This document shows positions 3,372-15,650 of a DNA stretch of 15,650 nt, piece after piece. The stretch lies in the IMG/VR virus record IMGVR_UViG_2703718817_000011; one strand, given 5' to 3'. The stretch's first letter is position 1. Every line of letters starts with the position of its first letter. The DNA comes from a virus. Its lineage: Duplodnaviria; Heunggongvirae; Uroviricota; Caudoviricetes. A model generated the notes under the pieces. That model did not search any database, was not told the origin of the DNA, and was given only the letters and a program-made list of their open reading frames with translations. Made by a program: the position numbers and the translations under genes.

Positions 3372-3795
3372 ACATCCAGTTATTGCGGTTAGCGGCCCGT
3401 TCTTCCTCTTCACGAAATCCACCTGCGGCACGCTTGCTTTTTGTTGCCGGATCAAGCCATTTCGTTTTCTGGTTATGACACGCCTGGCACAATGGTTGAT
3501 GGTTCCATTCGGGCCAGAAGAGAACATCATCACCGCCATTAATCGGGATAATGTGATCCACCACCACGGCGGGCGTATATATCCCCTTCTCAAGGCATCG
3601 CACGCATAACGGGTTTTTACTCAGATACATGGCGCGGTATTTGTCCCACTGTCTGGAATATCCACGCGCGCGGCGGTGTCCTCGTCTGGCATCCTCTGCA
3701 CGCCATGCCGCCCGCCTGTGCTCCTCACACTTGCCGGATTTAACGCGCCTGTTACAGCCTGGTTCTGTGCATCGTCTTAATGGTTGCCACGGCAT
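3355..3795 (-). CDS. HNH endonuclease (packaging-associated)
   Basis: 146 aa with paired Cys motifs and an HNH core (CxxC ... DHIIP ... N ... H ... CxxCH); located next to terS as in HK97-like cos phages; start overlaps the upstream stop. Confidence 0.85.
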   Translation of the reverse strand: MPWQPLRRCTEPGCNRRVKSGKCEEHRRAAWRAEDARRGHRRARGYSRQWDKYRAMYLSKNPLCVRCLEKGIYTPAVVVDHIIPINGGDDVLFWPEWNHQPLCQACHNQKTKWLDPATKSKRAAGGFREEEERAANRNNWMYDADE

Positions 3796-4426: not shown

Positions 4427-5634
4427 TCCGGTTTTTCTCCCTCGCTGATTTTTACTTCCTGTTTCCATGCCTGGCTGAACTCATCACCACCATCACGCGG
4501 TGACAGTCCTTCACGTTCGCGGGCTTCGTTCGGACACATAACGCCGGATTTGATGCCGCGCTCATAGGTGGCAAAGCGTTCGCCAGGTGTGGCCCGTAAC
4601 AGGTCCGCGCTGTCAAACTCCACCTGATACCGGATACCAGGTACAGGCGAGGCCACCAGCAGGGCGTTTTTTATCTGCTGCTCAAAGTTCGCCAGCCACG
4701 GGCGCATCGTCATGGTGAGAAATGCGCGGCTTGCCTCGCTGAAATTGCTGTAGGTGCTGTTGCTGTATTCCTGCAAAAAAATCGGCGAGACGTTGAACAT
4801 TCGGGCGATGTCTTCAATGGTGAAGCGACGGGAGGCCAGCCATTCAGCATCCTGATTACTCATGCCCAGCTGCTGATAGCTCATACCCCCTTCAAGGATG
4901 GGCGTTTTTCCGGCGTTTCTGGCCCCTTTGTAGCGTTCCAGTGCGGCTAATGCCTGTTTGCCCTTCACGCCGTCCAGCCATTCGCCTGACGTGATAACCC
5001 CTGCCGCCATCATGCCATCACGCATCACGCTCGCGCCGTGGCGTTGTTGGGCCAGCCCAAGCCCCAGCGATTCGCGGCAGATGGTTACAGGTGAGCGCCC
5101 CATAAAGCCGTCATCCGTGGAGTAACGAAGGTGAAGTACTTCCCACGGTAAATAGTTGCGGGTGTTTCCGGTGTAGGCGTCAGTGATGCAGTAGCGCCAG
5201 TTGTGTTCGCCTGTCTGCTCCACGTTCACCGACTGCGGCGGGTAAGGATGTAAAGCCGCCGGAAAACCATCACGCCCCCACTGAATCACCGCATAAGCAT
5301 TACCGTTTAACAGGCAGTGGCGGATCATCATTCGCTTAAACTGGTAGGGGGTTTGCCATGCGTTCGGGCGCTCGTTGAGGATGTGATCGACCGGATGAGA
5401 ATCAAGCCACTCGCGGGCCTCCTTCCCCTTCTCATTGCGTACCAGGTACAGGTAACACGGCATGGTAGCCACCGCCTCAGAGATGACCGTGACGGCGTTC
5501 ATGACGGCGGGCAGTGATTCCGCTGTCCCCGATGATACGTACTCACCCGCCCCCGTGTTCGATGTGCCAGCCAGCGCCATAAATTCATCAAGCGTCATGC
5601 TGCGCTGCTCTTTTTTTCTTCTGAAAGGCCACAT
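4423..5634 (-). CDS. Portal protein (HK97 family)
   Basis: 403-aa ORF with portal-family features; GGGGGTG SD upstream of ATG 5634; starts immediately after the protease stop. Confidence 0.88.
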   Translation of the reverse strand: MWPFRRKKEQRSMTLDEFMALAGTSNTGAGEYVSSGTAESLPAVMNAVTVISEAVATMPCYLYLVRNEKGKEAREWLDSHPVDHILNERPNAWQTPYQFKRMMIRHCLLNGNAYAVIQWGRDGFPAALHPYPPQSVNVEQTGEHNWRYCITDAYTGNTRNYLPWEVLHLRYSTDDGFMGRSPVTICRESLGLGLAQQRHGASVMRDGMMAAGVITSGEWLDGVKGKQALAALERYKGARNAGKTPILEGGMSYQQLGMSNQDAEWLASRRFTIEDIARMFNVSPIFLQEYSNSTYSNFSEASRAFLTMTMRPWLANFEQQIKNALLVASPVPGIRYQVEFDSADLLRATPGERFATYERGIKSGVMCPNEAREREGLSPRDGGDEFSQAWKQEVKISEGEKPE

Positions 5635-5635
5635 A

Positions 5636-6208
5636 TCACACCCCCGCTAAATCCACCCACCAGCGGCGATTATCCGCACGCGGCATTTTTTCGGGGTGCT
5701 GCTCATACAGGGAACGGCGGGCCAGCTCCACGCCGGAATCAGGGTAAGCCGGAACGGATGTAACGGTAATTTCGTACAGTTCCGCCACCAGCACGGTGCG
5801 CACGCATGGATCTGTTGTGGTATCCCATACATCCTTACGGGAACGAAAGCCAAAGCTCATGCCGGATATATCACCACGTTTAACCAGTTCGATAACGTCG
5901 CGCCCTGTGCTGGTATCCGGTGGGGTCAGTTCAAAGCGTAACCCTGTTTCGTCCTCTTCCAGTTTCAGCGTGCCGGAACGGGTACGCCCCAGTAACATGC
6001 TGTGGTCATGCTCATACAGGCCGCGAACGTCATTACCCGCTGCAAGCCATTCAGTAAACGCTCCCCGCTGGAATTTTTCGTAAAACTCACCCCATAACAG
6101 TTCTGAAAGCTTATCCCAGCGAACAACGTAGCCCGTCAGCGTACCGGCTCCGCTGGTGGTGATTTCCGATGACCGGATTTCCATACTCTTCATAATTTTT
6201 TCACCCAT
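5636..6208 (-). CDS. Prohead maturation protease (HK97 family, S78)
   Basis: 190 aa with YEHDHSMLLGRT and ISGMSFGF motifs typical of HK97 prohead proteases; alternative starts at 6193 or 6184. Confidence 0.82.
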   Translation of the reverse strand: MGEKIMKSMEIRSSEITTSGAGTLTGYVVRWDKLSELLWGEFYEKFQRGAFTEWLAAGNDVRGLYEHDHSMLLGRTRSGTLKLEEDETGLRFELTPPDTSTGRDVIELVKRGDISGMSFGFRSRKDVWDTTTDPCVRTVLVAELYEITVTSVPAYPDSGVELARRSLYEQHPEKMPRADNRRWWVDLAGV

Positions 6209-6247: not shown

Positions 6248-7405
6248 TTAATCGTCGTCCTGTGGCAGTTCCAGAATCTTGATCGCGTTCGAATCCACCA
6301 CGCCACCGCCTAAATATTTCTGCGTGAAAATTTTGATGAAGCCCGGCTCTGTGAGGTTGTCCGGTCTGGTGCGAACACCTGTTTCGTGATCAACAATGTA
6401 GTAACCGCGTTTGAAGTCACCCAGGGCAATAACGTTATCAGGCATAAACTCCAGATATTCGACCGGAAGGCCCAGCAACGTATCAGGATCACCCGCCTGT
6501 AAACGGTCGCGCCAGATGTAATCACCGTTCGCGTTCTTCACCTTCTGAAGTTTTGCCGCCGTCGTGGAGTTAACCACCCAGACCGCGTTTTTGCGGTATT
6601 TTTTACGTAATGCAAATTTCAGGTCGATCAACGGGTCCGCAGATGTCCACGCCAGAGATTCGGAAGGTTTAATTACCTGCAACGTACCAAAATCACGCTC
6701 TTTGTCGTTCTTCTCTGCACGGGGTACGGATAAAAAACCTTTTGCTTTTTTGTCACCGTCGCCCACAACCAGATCGCTTTCTTCGGTTTCCGTGAAGGTG
6801 TCGCCAATCTCACCCGTCAGCCATGAAAGGATGTCCACATCGGAAAAATCCACGATTTCCTGTGTGGTGCGCGGGTACGCATAGACCGGATACAGCTTAA
6901 TGCTCACCTCGTTAATCTGCGGGGTGCTGGTCTGTTCGCGTGTCTTACCCTCTTCACCGTGGTTAACGGTCGCACCGCCAGCGGAAACAAGCTGCTTAAA
7001 CTCGTTGCTGCTGATTTTCTTCACGGTACAGATGCGGCGCATGGTGGACTCATCCGCCAGCATTCGCATGATTTCGGTGTTCAGCTCGGGGATAACGGTA
7101 TAACCACCATCAGCGGGAACGCCTGTACTTAATGCGCGGGTTTCACCCGTCAGAATGTAGTTTCGTAGTTCTGCGGGGTCAGTGGTCTGACTGCTTTTAC
7201 CTGGCTTGCTGCGCTCTTCGTCTGCAATGGCTTCAAGGCGGGAAATGTCTTTATCGAGGGATTCAGCTTTAGCGCGTAATTCGTCAAATTTTGCGCCCTC
7301 AGCATCGTTAAGACTGCGGTTTTCTTTTTCCGCGTTCTCCAGCATGTCACGCATCTGATTTTTAATGGCGGTTTTCTGCTGGCGTAATTCGATTATTCTC
7401 TGCAT
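6248..7405 (-). CDS. Major capsid protein (HK97 fold) with N-terminal coiled-coil delta/scaffold domain
   Basis: ATG at 7405 (the track ORF extends to a TTG at 7450); N-terminal coiled coil about 70 aa long followed by a capsid-family body (GGYTVIPELNTEI...). Confidence 0.88.
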   Translation of the reverse strand: MQRIIELRQQKTAIKNQMRDMLENAEKENRSLNDAEGAKFDELRAKAESLDKDISRLEAIADEERSKPGKSSQTTDPAELRNYILTGETRALSTGVPADGGYTVIPELNTEIMRMLADESTMRRICTVKKISSNEFKQLVSAGGATVNHGEEGKTREQTSTPQINEVSIKLYPVYAYPRTTQEIVDFSDVDILSWLTGEIGDTFTETEESDLVVGDGDKKAKGFLSVPRAEKNDKERDFGTLQVIKPSESLAWTSADPLIDLKFALRKKYRKNAVWVVNSTTAAKLQKVKNANGDYIWRDRLQAGDPDTLLGLPVEYLEFMPDNVIALGDFKRGYYIVDHETGVRTRPDNLTEPGFIKIFTQKYLGGGVVDSNAIKILELPQDDD

Positions 7406-7443
7406 AAAAAAAAGTCCTGGGGTTAAGTAAGGAACTCCAGGAC
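7406..7443 (-). promoter_or_regulatory. Leader hairpin plus U8 tract abutting the capsid start codon (attenuator or SD-sequestering structure)
   Basis: Minus strand reads GUCCUGGAG-loop-CCCCAGGAC then UUUUUUUU then AUG; the only SD-like AGGA lies inside the 3' arm of the stem. Confidence 0.45.
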
Positions 7444-7620
7444 GCGGCAAACACTCAACCGTTTTTCATAAGGAAATCAGCAATCGCACCGATCGTTTTC
7501 CCGCCTGGTAATGAATATTGGCGGGCACATTAACAGGCGGGAAAGTGGCCCCAGCGTCCTGGCACCACGGGCGAGAATAATCATGATTCAGTTCGGGTAA
7601 AATATGCCGATCCGCTCAGT

Positions 7621-7650
7621 GAACAACGTGGAACAACCACGAACAAATAA
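7621..7650 (-). repeat. Three helically phased TTGTTC repeats upstream of the packaging operon
   Basis: Plus strand gaacaacgtg gaacaaccac gaacaaataa; minus strand reads TTGTTC at a 10-bp period; related to the repeats at 251-270 and 14341-14390. Confidence 0.5.
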
Positions 7651-7653
7651 TTT

Positions 7654-7686
7654 ACAAAAAATAACAAAAAGCCGGATTGCTCCGGC
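7654..7686 (-). terminator. Intrinsic terminator after the perC-like gene
   Basis: GCCGGA-ttgc-TCCGGC stem at 7671-7686 followed on the minus strand by UUUUUGUUAUUUUUUG. Confidence 0.55.
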
Positions 7687-7692
7687 TGTTGA

Positions 7693-7965
7693 TTAGCTGT
7701 CTGTGTAATTACGCCATATTTCATCGCTTACACCATCCATACCCATTTCAGCATAAGTGCGATCGACTGCCTTTCTCAGGTCTCCGAAGTTATCCGGCGG
7801 CTCCGGTGGCCTCTGTGCCTTCCTGGAACATTCCAGCCGTCGCATCGTAACCTGATGCCGTTCCTTGTCTGTCTCCACCAGTTGCATGACTTCACCCCAT
7901 CGCGCCGCCGCCCTCCGGTAAAAGCCTTTTGCCTCGAGTTCCTCCGCTATGCGGTCATGTGCCAT
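7693..7965 (-). CDS. PerC-family transcriptional regulator homologue
   Basis: Start at ATG 7965 with a GAGGGGG SD; contains the YRRAAARW motif characteristic of PerC/Pch proteins (recollection). Confidence 0.65.
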   Translation of the reverse strand: MAHDRIAEELEAKGFYRRAAARWGEVMQLVETDKERHQVTMRRLECSRKAQRPPEPPDNFGDLRKAVDRTYAEMGMDGVSDEIWRNYTDS

Positions 7966-7975
7966 CGTCACCCCC

Positions 7976-8386
7976 TCAGAACGGAATATCATCACCGTAA
8001 GGGTCATCGCCTCCCGCTGGTGGCTGATTACCCTGTGTGCCTGTGGCTTTGCGTCTGTTCCCGCCAGGACGTGCCGCGCGGGCACTGATTACGCTGTCCG
8101 CAATAACCTGATACCCCTGCCGTGTTTCCCCGTTCTGTCCGGTCCACTGGCTTACCTGCATCGTGCCGGATACGCTGGCAACATCGCCTTTTTGATGTTT
8201 AGCCAGGAAATCGGCCTGTTTGCCAAATGCGATAACCGATAACCATAACGTCGCCTGTCCGTCATGTGCCTGGCTGCATGGCAACGATACCGCCATACGC
8301 GCCAGAGTCATCGGTGTGCCCTTGCTGCTCTGTTTTACCAGCGGGTCGTCCACCAGCCGCCCGTAAGCTGCAATTTGTGCTGTCAT
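7976..8386 (-). CDS. ssb: Single-stranded DNA-binding protein
   Basis: 136 aa with an OB-fold-like N-terminal region, a Gly/Pro-rich linker and the C-terminal acidic tail DDIPF; GAGGTGG SD. Confidence 0.85.
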   Translation of the reverse strand: MTAQIAAYGRLVDDPLVKQSSKGTPMTLARMAVSLPCSQAHDGQATLWLSVIAFGKQADFLAKHQKGDVASVSGTMQVSQWTGQNGETRQGYQVIADSVISARAARPGGNRRKATGTQGNQPPAGGDDPYGDDIPF

Positions 8387-8395
8387 ATTGCCACC

Positions 8396-8701
8396 TCAGT
8401 GAAGCGATCCGGCGTTGTTCTTTTTCATCTCTTCCATCATTTTTTCAGTGAGCATTACGCACTGAAAACCCATGCTTTTGATGTCTACGGGTTTCATGCC
8501 TTTGTCTGTGGATATCACAGGCAGAATATCCTGATACACATCGCGGTCAGGGTAACTAAGCACACAAAGCGCCCATGATGCCACGGGTGAGGATCCTTCG
8601 TCTGTTTCAACCCACCAGCCTGGTGTAGCTGCGCTTATTTGCAGAATCGTGATCCGTCCGTTGTGCTTGTAAAATTTTTCACCAAATTTTGGTTCGCTCA
8701 T
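8396..8701 (-). CDS. Hypothetical protein (101 aa)
   Basis: ORF with an ATGA overlap to the upstream gene; 10-nt gap to ssb; no recognisable family. Confidence 0.5.
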   Translation of the reverse strand: MSEPKFGEKFYKHNGRITILQISAATPGWWVETDEGSSPVASWALCVLSYPDRDVYQDILPVISTDKGMKPVDIKSMGFQCVMLTEKMMEEMKKNNAGSLH

Positions 8702-8949
8702 GATTCCACCTCTCCGGTTTTAACGTTGATTGTTGTTACCTGTTCCGCTTCGGCAATCTCCCGTTCTGTCAGCGTGGCAAAGTTTGCCGCCGCTGTGGTC
8801 ATGAATGCGCTTATCAGTTCGGGATGCTCCTTCGCGTATCCTTCCCCCGCGTGGCGGTCTATCGTTCTGATTGCCACCTTTAAAGCGTGCTCTGTCATGT
8901 CTAACGCTTTATATTTTGGCTGTGTTCTGTCTCTGCGTTTTTGTGTCAT
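8698..8949 (-). CDS. Hypothetical protein (83 aa)
   Basis: Start taken at the internal ATG 8949 (GGTGGGGAG SD); the upstream part of track ORF 8698..9144 overlaps the iteron region and is probably non-coding. Confidence 0.4.
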   Translation of the reverse strand: MTQKRRDRTQPKYKALDMTEHALKVAIRTIDRHAGEGYAKEHPELISAFMTTAAANFATLTEREIAEAEQVTTINVKTGEVES

Positions 8950-8950
8950 C

Positions 8951-9155
8951 TCCCCACCTATACCCACTTTTACTCCCCACTTTTCACAATTCCCCATCTC
9001 GTTAAAGGCGTGGGATTTGTAATTTTTATCATGCTGTTTCATAAGGATTTTTTTGCTCCCCACTTTTTGGGATGTATACAGGTCAAAAAGTGGGGGATTG
9101 TGTTTAAATTTTGTTAAATTCCCCATACCCACCACTTTTGCCACCCACTTTTTAC
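8951..9155. repeat. Putative replication origin: CCCCACTTTT-type iterons flanking an AT-rich segment
   Basis: At least six copies of CCACTTTT in both orientations (about 8965, 8977, 9060, 9084 inverted, 9133, 9146) around an AT-rich stretch at 9011-9056, immediately 3' of the replication gene. Confidence 0.5.
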
Positions 9156-10561
9156 AGTGGCCCTACATCATCGCCGTCAACATAGATAACGCCGTCTTTT
9201 TCCAGCTTGCCCAGCCAGCGCCGGAAGTGCTTTATTTCGTACCCCAGTTTTTTCATGTCATCACGTAACAGCGGGATCGTGCACTTGTCGCCGTTCTGTG
9301 TGCGTGAACGGATACACCCCCATAGCGCGGTATGGTTTTCCGTCTTGTTGCCTGCCTCTTCGATGCGCTCCAGTTCAACGGGAGGGCGCGGCTTATCCAC
9401 CACCACCAGCGACGTGATTAACTCCCCGTCAGCGTCGGTAAAAAGCTCCACCACCCGCAAATCATAGGCAGCCTCTTTGAGTTCCTCCGCGTCCTTCATT
9501 TTGGTGCATGAGATAACCAGCGCTTCGCTTCCTGCGTCCTCCCTGCGTATCCGGTATTCAGCATCCAGTGATGCACGAAATGCACTGGAACCGCGCGCGC
9601 CTTTCGTCTCATCCTTGCCGGAATGGTGAACCACCAGCACCGTGGCCCCTGTGCGTCGTTTCAGTTCGTCACACCCACGGATAAACGCCCCCATGTCGCG
9701 GGAGTCATTTTCATCATTGCCGCCAAAGCAGCGCGCCAGCGTGTCCAGAATAATCATGCGAACAGGTTTACCCGTTTCCCTCTCCACCTGACTGGCAGCA
9801 ATAACCAGTTCATCAACATCAAGCGGGACAGCCGGAAAGATGGGACGGTTTACCAGATACAGATTTTTCACCTGCTCACCGTGCACAACCTCCCAGGCTT
9901 TTACACGACGCGGAACGCCGATACCGCCTTCACCAACCACATAGAGAACAGCGCCATGCGCCACCCTGCGGCCTCCCCACTGGCGGCCCGTGGAAACGTG
10001 ACACGCCCACGATCCGGCAAGGAATGATTTATAGGAACCGCTCGCCCCGTATATGCTGCAAAGCGACGATGCCGGAATAATCCCCTTTACCACGTAATCA
10101 AGTTGTGTGTCGTATCCGGTAGATCCAACGCTCATCGGTAGCGTGGTTTTTCGCTGGGGGATTTTTTTCATGACCAGGCTTTCCCCGCGTTCCCATGCCT
10201 CCCTAAGCCGTGGAAGCTGGTCGCTCCATTCCTCCAGCAATTCGAAATTTTCAGAAAGTAGCCGCGCCTCCTGGACTCCGGCGATCGCCAGTTTCGTGGC
10301 GATGGTTAACAGCTGCGGCTCTTCAATATTTCCGGCGCGTATCACCGTCGCCCTGTATCGCCCATCATCAACAATCTGGAGGTTATCCAGTTCGCTTAAC
10401 TGATAACGCCCCAGATAAACGGGAGGGACTGGATCGCCTGCTTTTTTGGCCTGTGCAATGATGTAATGCTCTGCGAATGAGTGAGCATCAATACCCGCAA
10501 AAATAATCGCATCGGTGTATTTGTCTTTCGGTAATAGTTTTACGTTCGGTGCCAGTTTCAT
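9152..10561 (-). CDS. Replication initiator/helicase-type ATPase (AAA_25/RepA-like), candidate PICI Pri-Rep
   Basis: 469 aa with Walker A GASGSYKS, Walker B-like MIILDTL and an HHSGK motif typical of AAA_25 RecA-like replication proteins; N-terminal domain about 150 aa of unknown type. Confidence 0.7.
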   Translation of the reverse strand: MKLAPNVKLLPKDKYTDAIIFAGIDAHSFAEHYIIAQAKKAGDPVPPVYLGRYQLSELDNLQIVDDGRYRATVIRAGNIEEPQLLTIATKLAIAGVQEARLLSENFELLEEWSDQLPRLREAWERGESLVMKKIPQRKTTLPMSVGSTGYDTQLDYVVKGIIPASSLCSIYGASGSYKSFLAGSWACHVSTGRQWGGRRVAHGAVLYVVGEGGIGVPRRVKAWEVVHGEQVKNLYLVNRPIFPAVPLDVDELVIAASQVERETGKPVRMIILDTLARCFGGNDENDSRDMGAFIRGCDELKRRTGATVLVVHHSGKDETKGARGSSAFRASLDAEYRIRREDAGSEALVISCTKMKDAEELKEAAYDLRVVELFTDADGELITSLVVVDKPRPPVELERIEEAGNKTENHTALWGCIRSRTQNGDKCTIPLLRDDMKKLGYEIKHFRRWLGKLEKDGVIYVDGDDVGPL

Positions 10562-12501: not shown

Positions 12502-12681
12502 ATGGCAACAAAAGCAGTTAATGCAAAATCCAAAAAGCTTGAGGCTCGAGTACCACACGCAATAGCTGATGCTGTAGAAAATTTAAAGGAAGATGGCGAA
12601 AGTACAGGGCAATTTATCGTTTCGGCACTTGAAGGCGAGATCAAACGCCGCCAGCGCCGCAAGGCCAAAGAATCAGAATAA
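12502..12681 (+). CDS. Ribbon-helix-helix (CopG/Arc-like) DNA-binding protein, 59 aa
   Basis: ATG 12502 with a GGAA SD; predicted beta-strand/helix/helix layout (KLEARVPHAIADAVENLKEDGESTGQFIVSALEGEIKRR); divergent from the replication operon. Confidence 0.55.
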   Translation: MATKAVNAKSKKLEARVPHAIADAVENLKEDGESTGQFIVSALEGEIKRRQRRKAKESE

Positions 12682-12738
12682 TCACTATCAGCGCCGTGGT
12701 GTGAGGTACTACGGCGCATTGCTTTACAGGGCAGTATC

Positions 12739-12966
12739 ATGACCAACAACACACTATCACCAATACAAGACACGCAAACGCAAGATGATGAATTCATCCG
12801 GCAAAGGCAGTCAGAAGCCTGCGCCAGACTTGAGGAAGAACTAACCAGAACAAAAATACCACCACCAGCGCCGCGCTTAGTGCCACCAGAAAAATTTGCC
12901 CTTGAAGATTTTGTCGATAAATACCCACGGCGGCTTAAATCCGGCAAAAACCGACCGCCAGGATGA
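12739..12966 (+). CDS. Small protein of unknown function (75 aa), partner of the upstream RHH gene
   Basis: ATG 12739 follows the conserved 44-nt hairpin element; paralogous to 13423..13626. Confidence 0.45.
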   Translation: MTNNTLSPIQDTQTQDDEFIRQRQSEACARLEEELTRTKIPPPAPRLVPPEKFALEDFVDKYPRRLKSGKNRPPG

Positions 12967-13185: not shown

Positions 13186-13365
13186 GTGTCAACACACAAA
13201 AATGAAAGGCGTGGTAATCCTCCTTTCCAGTTCCGTTTAGATCCTGACTTACGGGAAAAGATGGAAAAAGCACAACAACAAGACGGTGATGACTCTTTAG
13301 CTGCTTGGATAAAACGAATAATCCGAAAAGAATTACAGCAACGCGGTATTGAACCCAAAGAATAA
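13186..13365 (+). CDS. Arc-like ribbon-helix-helix protein, about 59 aa (start uncertain, GTG proposed)
   Basis: Not in the ORF track (below 60 aa with a non-ATG start); hand translation gives VSTHKNERRGNPPFQFRLDPDLREKMEKAQQQDGDDSLAAWIKRIIRKELQQRGIEPKE, resembling P22 Arc; GGGGTG SD-like 8 nt upstream. Confidence 0.5.
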   Translation: MSTHKNERRGNPPFQFRLDPDLREKMEKAQQQDGDDSLAAWIKRIIRKELQQRGIEPKE

Positions 13366-13422
13366 AAAACATCAGCGCCGTGGCGTGAGGAACTCCGGCG
13401 CATTGCTTTACAGGTACACACA

Positions 13423-13626
13423 ATGACCAATAAAGAATCAACCAATACACCATCGCAAAAAACGAACAGAGAGCACGAAAATATGGCGCTCGAGCATGAA
13501 TCAGAAAGATTCGCTCCATGCGCTTTTGTCCTTGATGAGTTTCTAAAAAAATATTCACGTTCTGAACGGATGAAAATGGCAGCACAATACGGCCCCAACA
13601 AGCAAGGTAATTGCCCACCAGCCTGA
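13423..13626 (+). CDS. Small protein of unknown function (67 aa), paralogue of 12739..12966
   Basis: ATG 13423 follows the second copy of the 44-nt element; both proteins start MTN and share a C-terminal F(A/V)L(E/D)(D/E)F..KY.R motif. Confidence 0.45.
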   Translation: MTNKESTNTPSQKTNREHENMALEHESERFAPCAFVLDEFLKKYSRSERMKMAAQYGPNKQGNCPPA

Positions 13627-13869: not shown

Positions 13870-14058
13870 TTAGTGAACTGCCTTGCAGCTATCCTTCCAG
13901 GCCAAAACCTCAGATAAAGACCAGCCAACAGAACGCCCACCAAGTTTACGACGTGATGGGAATTGTCCGGCCTTTTCCAGGCGGTAGCGGCATGAGCGGC
14001 TAAGGCCTGTTAGCTTTTCGCATTCTTTTTCACGTATAAACCGATCAGTGCTTAACAC
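13870..14058 (-). CDS. alpA: AlpA-family phage regulatory protein (excisionase/transcriptional regulator-like)
   Basis: 62 aa, apparent GTG start with an AAGGGGG SD; winged-helix excisionase-like sequence (LTGLSRSCRYRLEKAGQFP ... GWSLSEVLAW); downstream of and co-directional with int. Confidence 0.78.
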   Translation of the reverse strand: MLSTDRFIREKECEKLTGLSRSCRYRLEKAGQFPSRRKLGGRSVGWSLSEVLAWKDSCKAVH

Positions 14059-14219
14059 TATTGCCCCCTTTCGTTTCTTAAAGAGTTATTTCGTGTTCTA
14101 TTGCGTTGGGATGTGTCTGATTGTGTCAGGATGATTCAGAGTTGGCAAATGTTGGTGTCGCATGGTTTACAGAAAGAGGAATAATCAGGATAAAATCATT
14201 TAAATTCATGTTAATACAA

Positions 14220-14249
14220 AGGCATAAAATCTTGTTTTATGCCTTTTTT
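14220..14249 (+). terminator. Strong stem-loop plus T-tract in the int-alpA intergenic region
   Basis: 10-bp stem AGGCATAAAA / TTTTATGCCT, 5-nt loop, then TTTTT; could act bidirectionally to end int transcription. Confidence 0.45.
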
Positions 14250-14340
14250 CGCACACTTTAACGCGTAATTCACTAATGTATAAAAAACCAGCTGAGCATT
14301 AAAAATCAGCAACTTACAAATCTGTATTCTTTTTGGCCTC

Positions 14341-14390
14341 TTGTTCGTGATTGTGTCACGTTGTTGCACATTGTTTCTCGTTGTATCTGT
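14341..14390. repeat. Five helically phased decamers each beginning TTGT
   Basis: ttgttcgtga ttgtgtcacg ttgttgcaca ttgtttctcg ttgtatctgt with an exact 10-bp period, between int and alpA. Confidence 0.55.
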
Positions 14391-14432: not shown

Positions 14433-15650
14433 TTATTTTATTCTGGTTACTGGTAGCGTGGTTACGTTTTCATGTGTTCCCGCCAGTATCTCCAACCGCT
14501 CCACCCACATATCAAGCGCATTGCGTTTCGCATCAATATAGCGGGAATGGTTGTACACGCGTTGCATTCCTGGCATCTGGTGGCCTGTAAGCTGCTCCAC
14601 GACGTGAGGATCAACGCCTAAATCGTTCAGCATGGTTGTAAAGGTGCGCCGGATGTCATGCAATGACCATTGAGGGTGTTTTAGCCTCCTGTGCGCTAAT
14701 CTGCCGTACTGCGATACGCTAGCCTCCTGTTTCACTTCCCCCAGTAATAAGCCCGTGTGCCTGTTCTGGTCCACCAGCCGCGTGACGAACGGCAGGATCG
14801 CTTCCGGTATGGGCCGGAATATTGCAACCTTCGTTTTGCTGTGCTCCTTCGGAACGGTCCATAGCATTTCGGTAAAATCCCACTCGCTGATCTCCGATAA
14901 CCTCAGTTCTACCGTCCTGGCTCCGAAGACAATCAGGAGGCGGATTAACGCGACGTAGTAAGGAGAAAATATTTTTTTATCCAGCGCCTGCAATAACTCG
15001 CCCAGTTCTTTGGTGCTTAAGACACGTTCGCTTATATCCGGTTTTTTCCCAACGTCCGCCACGTTCAGATCATCGAGAACGTTGCTGATTGCAAAGCGCC
15101 GCCTCCGGCAGAACTTAAGCGCCTGCTTGCATGTCTGTAGCACGAATCCGGCAGTAACAGGTGTTCGCTTTGCCACCTGGTCAAAACAGGCCAGCCAGTG
15201 CCGTAGCTCGCATTTATCCAGCGGCATAGCGCCAATGTACTGTATTACGTGATTATTAAGTCGCCTTTTCAGGGCGATATAATCCACGCGGTTTTCCTTT
15301 ACGTACGACTCAAGCCAGTAGGTGAGCGCATCGCCAACCGTTACCGGCTTTAACGCTTCCTGTACGGCGTAATTCATCTCATGGCGTGGATTTTTCCCCT
15401 CCGCCAGCCATGCGCGACACTGGGCGGCTTTTTCCCTGGCTGCTTTCAGGCTCAGATCAGGATAATTTCCCAGCTTAATACGTTCCGGTCGTGTCTCTCT
15501 TCCCGTTCCTGCCCTGTAAGTGAAATACCAGGTTAATTTCCCTGATGTTAAATATTTCACGCTCAGATTTCCGCCATCGCTATAAAACGTGTTTTTCTCC
15601 GCTGGCTTACCATGAAGTTTCCTTAGCAAGGTATCGCTCAGTTTGTTCAT
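14433..15650 (-). CDS. int: Tyrosine-type site-specific integrase (phage/P4-like family)
   Basis: 405-aa ORF whose start codon is the last three bases of the window; C-terminal catalytic signature HDIRRT ... H ... Y and an N-terminal arm-binding-like domain. Confidence 0.9.
   Translation of the reverse strand: MNKLSDTLLRKLHGKPAEKNTFYSDGGNLSVKYLTSGKLTWYFTYRAGTGRETRPERIKLGNYPDLSLKAAREKAAQCRAWLAEGKNPRHEMNYAVQEALKPVTVGDALTYWLESYVKENRVDYIALKRRLNNHVIQYIGAMPLDKCELRHWLACFDQVAKRTPVTAGFVLQTCKQALKFCRRRRFAISNVLDDLNVADVGKKPDISERVLSTKELGELLQALDKKIFSPYYVALIRLLIVFGARTVELRLSEISEWDFTEMLWTVPKEHSKTKVAIFRPIPEAILPFVTRLVDQNRHTGLLLGEVKQEASVSQYGRLAHRRLKHPQWSLHDIRRTFTTMLNDLGVDPHVVEQLTGHQMPGMQRVYNHSRYIDAKRNALDMWVERLEILAGTHENVTTLPVTRIK

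Follow-up and report, generated by a model that had tools for sequence, protein, structure and literature searches.

Excisionase-type proteins bind head-to-tail on direct repeats arranged in helical phase. The Cox protein of phage P2 reportedly recognizes cox boxes, which are direct repeats located both at the attachment site (att) and at promoters, and is said to activate the P4 late promoter P_LL from just upstream of its -35 element. The sites of TorI, the KplE1 excisionase, in attL have GTTCG, GATCG or GTCCG cores, and one block comprises three sites 2 nt apart (PMC2951348). RdfS binds attP as well as promoters and activates PintS (PMC11963761). In the phage-inducible chromosomal islands (PICIs) of Gram-negative bacteria, including the capsid-forming islands (cf-PICIs) that spread between species via borrowed phage tails, AlpA has been described as the master switch. 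AlpA of the island EcCICFT073 activates a PalpA-lacZ fusion and is needed for induction, and overexpression of alpA alone leads to excision and replication (PMC6092414). Likewise, alpA overexpression drives the reproduction of EcCIEDL933 for capsid purification (bioRxiv 2025.02.11.637232); this island is the cf-PICI prototype (bioRxiv 10.1101/2022.09.08.507074). The literature that we searched contained no AlpA operator and no promoter, transcription start site or reporter data for the capsid operon. Here we describe phased TTGTTC repeats in the 15,650-nt IMG/VR record IMGVR_UViG_2703718817_000011 (Caudoviricetes; the whole stretch is hereafter the window), which is a cf-PICI of E. coli inserted in tqsA, and we focus on the copy upstream of the major capsid gene. 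The repeats are real, selectively conserved and members of a four-site family. Judging from the sequences, we put the chance that these arrays are AlpA boxes, which would place the capsid operon in the AlpA regulon, at about even.

Three exact TTGTTC units with a 10-bp period lie on the minus strand of the window (U1, 7646-7641; U2, 7636-7631; U3, 7626-7621), in the interval that separates the PerC gene's terminator from the capsid gene. This agrees with the original prediction, made from the sequence alone, which had also pointed out the similarity to an array in the int-alpA spacer. That similarity is genuine: it extends over 22 of 25 bases (88%; 7622-7646 versus 14341-14365), and among the inverted pairs of the window an unbiased repeat search ranks the two segments second in length. 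The hexamer alone is not enriched (13 copies found, 10.6 expected); the phased triple is clearly non-random, with 18/18 matches versus a maximum of 16/18 in 300 shuffles. To survey relatives, we used a capsid alignment to scan a single genome from each species, which yielded 39 loci from genera that include Shigella, Enterobacter, Klebsiella, Kosakonia, Pantoea, Erwinia and Rahnella (loci used for comparison are denoted by L numbers throughout). Related loci contain five or six array matches at no more than three mismatches, against an expectation of 0.01-0.06. In cf-PICIs with diverged flanks the capsid array is kept as a 39-bp island of 97% identity, and it occurs in at least 358 E. coli genomes. 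An exact-pattern scan of IMG/VR returned 80 loci, 12 of them in PICI contexts and the remainder unrelated. Ten of these 12 arrays are upstream of and co-oriented with a capsid gene, and the other two are inverted and lie in int-alpA spacers.

Immediately upstream of U1 is a box, TTTGTAAATTAT, that supplies a further phased unit (Table 1). Its TTTGTAAAT portion is invariant in 11/11 aligned relatives, and the box is present in 22/23 relatives belonging to many genera. No other element of the region is as well conserved, and across genera the box exceeds even the TTGTTC repeats in this respect. An integration host factor site within the box was considered and dismissed, the match to WATCAANNNNTTR being poor by eye. 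A sequence similar to the box, TTTGTAAGTT, is found at 14311-14320 (minus strand), 20 nt downstream of the int-alpA array.

The array upstream of the capsid gene is one of four. The others are in the int-alpA spacer (A2), in the left att arm (A3) and in the right att arm upstream of int; the last of these lies just past the right end of the window and is seen in L001 (17957-18002). The original prediction overlooked both arm arrays and did not mention that A2 runs opposite to both alpA and the capsid array. The inversion and the arm arrays point to an excisionase-type binder. In the unbiased repeat search, the longest inverted pair of the window is 248-277 versus 14339-14368, and a 38-nt direct pair links 231-268 with 7612-7649. 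In the window as in the EcCIEDL933-type island, the capsid, arm and int-alpA arrays agree at almost every base, and the decamer TTGTTCCACG recurs among them. Moreover, 25 bases of the window's capsid array are identical to the int-alpA array of L004. The EcCIEDL933-type island has the same four-array layout as the window, and EcCICFT073 has arrays in both arms and in the int-alpA spacer.

Beside A3 there are two tandem copies of GGTGTAGTCA, the only exact ones in the window. In L001 the same pair precedes int (17950-17925) and is directly 3' of the arm TTGTnn array, just as in the left arm. These tandem repeats are probably integrase arm-type sites. Across 16 relatives, the tandem repeat by the int start varies with the integrase clade (GGTGTATCA, GTGYAGTC, TGTATAAAC, GTGGGGTAA or GGTGTAC), and in most of the 16 GTTC-type phased units lie 5' of it. 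If the GGTGTAGTCA-type repeats are the integrase arm sites, the TGTTC arrays would fall to the excisionase-type AlpA, the other protein of recombination. Three phased direct repeats are a common form of integrase arm-type sites, an arm-binding domain (PF13356) is present in Int and two arrays lie in att arms, so it could be supposed that the TTGTTC arrays are themselves arm-type sites and that the capsid-upstream copy is stray or architectural. We regard this as highly improbable, because it is the adjacent GGTGTAGTCA-type repeats, arm-confined and dependent on Int clade, that behave as arm sites, whereas the TTGTTC arrays persist across Int clades and are also found 1.3 kb and 8 kb from att.

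The arrangement fits a recombination directionality factor. Three units at 10 bp and TTGTAA at 11 bp make up a series of at least three direct repeats in helical phase. Copies in the att arms adjoin the integrase arm-type sites, a layout that is general in relatives, and the element encodes a cognate winged-helix excisionase-type protein, as indicated by PF05930 and by the structure model. The AlpA model (pLDDT 87) matches the GIsul2 excisionase 8c3t with a TM score of 0.79 and an rmsd of 1.2 Å, and also RdfS, Pukovnik Xis and TorI (TM score 0.63 for TorI). A PDB sequence search with AlpA (E <= 1) gave the GIsul2 excisionase as the only credible relative, with no antiterminator chain and no detectable similarity to TorI. 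TorI nevertheless provides a close precedent for the type of box, since its GTTCG-like cores include three sites 2 nt apart. The two systems share the roughly 10-bp period of core sites, their position beside Int arm-type sites and a protein that also regulates a promoter; they differ in the effect, which is repression of intS by TorI but proposed activation of a structural operon here, and in the extent of the sites, known only from attL for TorI but forming four arrays here. Lambda Xis (X1-X1.5-X2), RdfS and BldC filaments are likewise winged-helix proteins that bend DNA and assemble head-to-tail along phased sites. RdfS, however, lacks a clear consensus, while the motif described here is a sharp TTGTTC and is present in both att arms.

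We next consider AlpA itself. AlpA of EcCICFT073 is identical to that of the window at 59 of 62 positions (95%), and AlpA of the EcCIEDL933-type island (L047) is the same as that of L004 (accession WP_000953272.1), which is 98% identical to the window's. Thus, the protein is the same as the published PICI master activator (compare Vis of P4), and its published properties fit. In EcCICFT073 (L046) the int-alpA spacer has a perfect run of three TTGTTC units (5716-5741) within about six phased units, in inverted orientation. According to the primers in the supplement of PMC6092414, the insert of the PalpA-lacZ plasmid (pJP2038) corresponds to L046 5628-6083 and therefore contains this perfect run. 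Strict arrays (at least three units, 10-11 bp) number 20 in 16 alpA-positive loci versus about 1.2 in shuffles, and with a single exception they are located at the arms or precede alpA or the capsid gene. Four alpA-negative relatives, in which an HTH_17 Xis takes the place of AlpA, have none. We also looked for TACTC arrays at the arms and regulator promoters of the alpA-negative relatives and found none.

From these observations we infer the following scheme. AlpA, a small protein probably of the winged-helix excisionase (recombination directionality factor) type, would bind all four arrays. The arm arrays beside the integrase arm-type repeats would serve excision, and the int-alpA array would serve the published positive autoregulation of AlpA. 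The capsid array, together with the TTGTAA box just upstream, would serve the capsid operon. With alpA switched on by a helper phage, these sites would become occupied by AlpA, and transcription of the capsid and packaging genes would rise. Activation might work through contact with RNA polymerase or through a bend in the upstream DNA, in the manner reported for P2 Cox at the P4 late promoter. The parallel with Cox, which acts at P2 Pc and attP and at P4 P_LL, lies in a small excisionase-type protein using helically phased direct repeats at att and at promoters. Unlike AlpA, Cox is a helper protein with a different box and from a different family; AlpA is satellite-encoded and is the candidate binder here. 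What the proposal would add to published work on AlpA is the operator itself, for which the boxes are candidates.

The original prediction proposed that U3 is a weak -35 element paired with a TATTTT -10 element, in an activator-dependent promoter for the head genes. In this geometry the activator would overlap the -35 element (class II activation) and transcription would start near 7592. TATTTT is indeed present in the window at the correct distance, 16 nt beyond the last repeat (7604-7599), with T, A and T at -12, -11 and -7, respectively, and this form is kept in E. coli islands of the window's type. In 11 related cf-PICIs, however, the aligned hexamer is TGTTTA, CGTTTA, GGTTTA or TATTTA, so that A at -11 is lost in 6/11 and T at -7 in 11/11, and these are not plausible -10 elements. 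TATTTT also overlaps a conserved TTTAC block, and the bases that are conserved are TTTAC as a -35 element paired with TAnnnT 16 nt on. We therefore consider the proposed geometry unlikely. Of the original idea of an activator-dependent capsid promoter, the dependence survives, an AlpA-dependent promoter being the best available reading given that an array is contained in the AlpA-activated PalpA fragment; the -35/-10 assignment does not.

The Enterobacterales relatives share a constant layout: box TTTGTAAATTAT, three phased units, about 17 nt, TTTAC[ACGT], exactly 16 nt, TAnnnT, 5 nt and a hairpin. The corresponding hexamers of the window are the probable promoter elements (Table 1), with transcription predicted to start near 7567. 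In L002 a promoter scan lists TTTACA-16-TATGTT as the only promoter-like site; the window promoter agrees with the consensus at 8/12 positions and falls below the listing of the scan tool. The conserved TTTAC-16-TAnnnT pair puts the boxes at about -54 to -91, which makes them upstream activator-type sites, comparable with the cox boxes of the P4 late promoter, rather than a substitute for the -35 element. From there they would act on a conserved promoter of the sigma-70 type.

Comparison of the relatives revealed a second class of arrays. At the homologous position, 11 relatives have three phased units TCGTACTCAT GTTTACCCGT GATTACCCCT and variants thereof. The control region of this class 2 has the same box and spacing as class 1 (TTGTTC-like), with TAC(C/T)C-like units, and a strong hairpin with a T-run takes the place of the TTTAC -35 element. 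All six elements with short-type AlpA are TTGTTC-like and all four with the HTH_17 type are TAC(C/T)C-like.

Several observations weigh against AlpA as the reader of the capsid array. Array class and AlpA clade are not strictly coupled, as elements with long-type AlpA split 5:5 between the two classes despite almost identical recognition helices. This split may reflect either tolerant recognition (T-R-Y-Y-C), recent module shuffling or another factor at the capsid-upstream units. The spacing from U3 to the -35 element is 19 nt in the window versus 17 nt in relatives, which alters the helical face. The orientation of the alpA-proximal array differs between lineages, and the window's int-alpA array is inverted to alpA and more than 120 bp from any promoter-like site; PalpA could not be placed by promoter-like sites. 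EcCICFT073 has no array before its packaging module. In the marine satellite PICMI, satellite transcription is unchanged by AlpA (PMC10803314). Finally, Pint of EcCICFT073 is unaffected by AlpA although an array lies upstream of int (PMC6092414); the Pint-lacZ primers of that study did not map to the CFT073 locus at up to one mismatch, and the fragment may or may not have included the arm array. It is the class split, the long-type discordance, the array orientation and the 19-nt spacing that keep our confidence in AlpA at an even level.

The same uncoupling of array class from AlpA clade in long-type elements, and a box TTTGTAAATTAT that is invariant whatever the regulator, would be expected if another protein read the capsid array. 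This could be a host response regulator (of the TorR, PhoP, ArcA or OmpR type) or an island protein, in which case the likeness among the arrays would reflect shared DNA ancestry. Where AlpA is of the long type, the array units that precede alpA are TGTTCATC-like, and the TGTTCATC units of L028 and L034 resemble tor boxes, whose TorR consensus is CTGTTCATAT. On the other hand, the near identity of the capsid array to the arm and int-alpA arrays, including the 25 bases shared with L004, the absence of arrays from alpA-negative relatives and the placement in att arms beside Int arm-type sites, which suits an excisionase and not a host response regulator, make a different reader unlikely in our view. 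In these two Enterobacter/Klebsiella cf-PICIs, the region upstream of alpA (L028 ~3465-3700; L034 ~4845-5045) has a series of repeats: four to six copies of the 12-bp ACATTCAACAGC and four of the 10-bp GACACGTAAC, followed by five or six TGTTCATC.

Three specific candidates were considered and set aside. PerC is rejected as the binder, as the array occurs without PerC in L002, L003 and L005, and PerC occurs without an array before the packaging module in EcCICFT073. A helper-encoded late activator is unlikely: tail-less EcCIEDL933 capsids form without a helper phage (bioRxiv 2025.02.11.637232), which, taken with the effect of alpA overexpression on that island, means that no helper-encoded activator is needed. 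The third candidate is the product of a small gene (phrog_1957 family) that directly precedes the box; this gene is not universal, and in the window PerC takes its place.

The leader of the capsid operon has features of its own. The predicted 5' untranslated region (7568-7406, minus strand) is strongly structured, with a z-score of -4.8. Its 5'-terminal hairpin, GTGGTGCCAGGACGCTGGGGCCAC in the window, is kept as GTGGCACTCAGACGTGAGCCGCCAC in relatives, with three compensatory pairs in the window and two in L015. A second hairpin followed by U8 looks like an intrinsic terminator; most class-1 relatives lack it. No Shine-Dalgarno sequence is visible before the capsid ATG of the window; in relatives, the downstream leader hairpin covers the ribosome-binding site. 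In each of the three sequence versions, a segment of the 5' hairpin can base-pair with the downstream hairpin's 5' arm, and compensatory changes in two lineages keep both alternative pairings. The energies of the long-range duplex are only modestly better than those of shuffles. RNAalifold found almost no covariation in the leader, most sequences being invariant, and an Rfam scan of 7350-7720 at a permissive threshold gave nothing near gathering scores. Taken together, the leader sequence hints at a possible switch, which may be an attenuator or a riboregulator. In the L002 cf-PICI variant, a gene for a ProQ/FinO-family RNA-binding protein (8320-8862, minus strand) is located two genes upstream of the structured capsid leader.

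Such a leader raises the possibility of control in two layers. The boxes would load AlpA, or a factor that also reads TTTGTAAATTAT, and the leader RNA would act as the switch, with AlpA as a site-loaded antiterminator or anti-sequestration factor. The 5' hairpin would pair alternatively with the downstream hairpin, which ends in U8 in the window and sequesters the ribosome-binding site in relatives. We consider this combination an outside chance. Another reading, in which AlpA is a DNA-loaded antiterminator of the P. aeruginosa AlpA or lambda Q type, the boxes are loading sites and leader terminators are read through, seems to us very unlikely. It would account for the hairpin and U8 abutting the capsid ATG, for the class-2 relatives that have a strong hairpin and T-run between array and -10 element, and for the GTTC-bearing hairpin with T-run before the alpA ATG of several relatives. 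P. aeruginosa terminators likewise sit directly upstream of target genes, but the site of P. aeruginosa AlpA, GGGACG-N5-GGTA, lies between -35 and -10 and is not an upstream array (PMC7969949). In the conserved-promoter model the window's boxes are upstream of the -35 element, the PDB search yielded no antiterminator, and the modelled 62-residue AlpA is almost all winged helix without a long N-terminal segment. Accordingly, the likeness to P. aeruginosa AlpA comprises the name, a predicted winged helix and terminators directly upstream of target genes; the site and the mode of action, antitermination, differ, and we detected no sequence similarity. Terminator-like hairpins also stand between arrays and alpA, in the window at 14213-14243 (minus strand). 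In L003, L010, L017, L019 and L032 a hairpin with a T-run that contains two GTTC units directly precedes the alpA start codon.

Another possible role for phased repeats in a satellite is in replication, as iterons or a cis replication region; the model would be the type I iteron of P4 ori/crr, to which the alpha protein binds. U3 with its flank, TGTTCAC, agrees with seven of eight bases of this P4 iteron, TGTTCACC. We find such a role hardly credible, since the same arrays accompany three unrelated Rep types, a RepA helicase in the window, DUF927 in O157 and a primase-type Rep in CFT073, L003 and L005, and since a separate iteron-like family, TTTTRCYCCCCACTTTT in three copies, occurs right after rep at 8968-9152. 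These copies, of the form TTTT(A/G)C(T/C)(C/A)CCCACTTTT, are 83-85 bp apart and directly downstream of the RepA helicase gene. This segment is likely to be a replication origin with its own iteron family.

The assignment of the window to the cf-PICIs rests on Pfam and RefSeq annotation: about 15 kb encode int, alpA, rep, capsid, protease, portal, connectors, HNH, terS and terL, and there are no tail or lysis genes. The window opens with the tqsA ATG at position 1, and island sequence follows from about 156-160. In E. coli O43 RM10042, a near-identical copy is likewise annotated as interrupting tqsA. All on the minus strand, the gene order is int, alpA, RepA-type helicase, SSB, PerC-family gene, capsid and packaging genes, the last comprising prohead protease, portal, two connectors, HNH, terS and terL. 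A 321-nt query from upstream of the capsid gene matches O157:H7 strains that carry an EcCIEDL933-type island at about 98% identity over 90% of its length. A duplicated plus-strand module (YlcI/YnfO-type gene and a small open reading frame) is marked by a 75-nt direct repeat (12675-12749 and 13359-13433, 80% identity), and this region is about 360 bp longer in the window than in the RM10042 copy. The last gene of the island belongs to the phrog_1561 family and has no known function.

Table 1. Positions of features discussed in the text (window coordinates, except for the class-2 regions, which are given by locus)
Feature	Position	Strand	Remarks
Probable -35 element, TTTACC	7601-7596	minus	TTTAC invariant in 12/12 class-1 elements; 16-nt spacer
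Probable -10 element, TATTCT	7579-7574	minus	TAnnnT 5 nt before leader hairpin in 23/23 relatives with hairpin anchor
Box TTTGTAAATTAT	7647-7658	minus	Acts as unit 0 (TTGTAA, 11 bp before U1)
5'-terminal leader hairpin GTGGTGCCAGGACGCTGGGGCCAC	7545-7568	minus	Loop GACG; nearly invariant across genera
Hairpin (7443-7414) with U8 (7413-7406)	7406-7443	minus	Abuts capsid ATG (7405); part of minimum-free-energy fold
Array A2, int-alpA spacer	14341-14386	plus	Five phased units: TTGTTC, TTGTGT, TTGTTG, TTGTTT, TTGTAT
Array A3, left att arm	275-250	minus	TTGTGC, TTGTTC, TTGTTT; ~95 bp inside island end
GGTGTAGTCA x2	211-232	minus	12-bp period; probable integrase arm-type sites beside A3
int	14433-15650	minus	P4-type integrase with arm-binding domain PF13356
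alpA	13870-14058	minus	62 aa; PF05930, E 5e-18; PHROG label 'excisionase and transcriptional regulator'
RepA-type helicase gene	9152-10561	minus	
PerC gene	7693-7965	minus	PF06069, E 7e-44
PerC gene terminator	7687-7670	minus	Hairpin then T-run
Major capsid gene	6248-7405	minus	PF05065; first gene of packaging operon
Class-2 regions	~130-230 bp upstream of capsid gene		L007, L009, L011-L015, L020, L028, L034-L036, L039, L041

For the PICI field, the phased TTGTTC box and the map of its four sites (two att arms, PalpA and the capsid promoter) provide a concrete candidate for the AlpA operator. The proposed control of excision, self-activation and capsid switch-on by AlpA would be sensible and not very surprising, excisionase-type regulators on phased repeats being well known. 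Should the binder not be AlpA, the invariant box and the two array classes would point to a further regulator of cf-PICI packaging. The phased TTGTTC box also offers a sequence signature by which such islands and their regulons may be annotated. If the proposal is correct, one small protein would couple excision of the island, its own amplification and the production of capsids.

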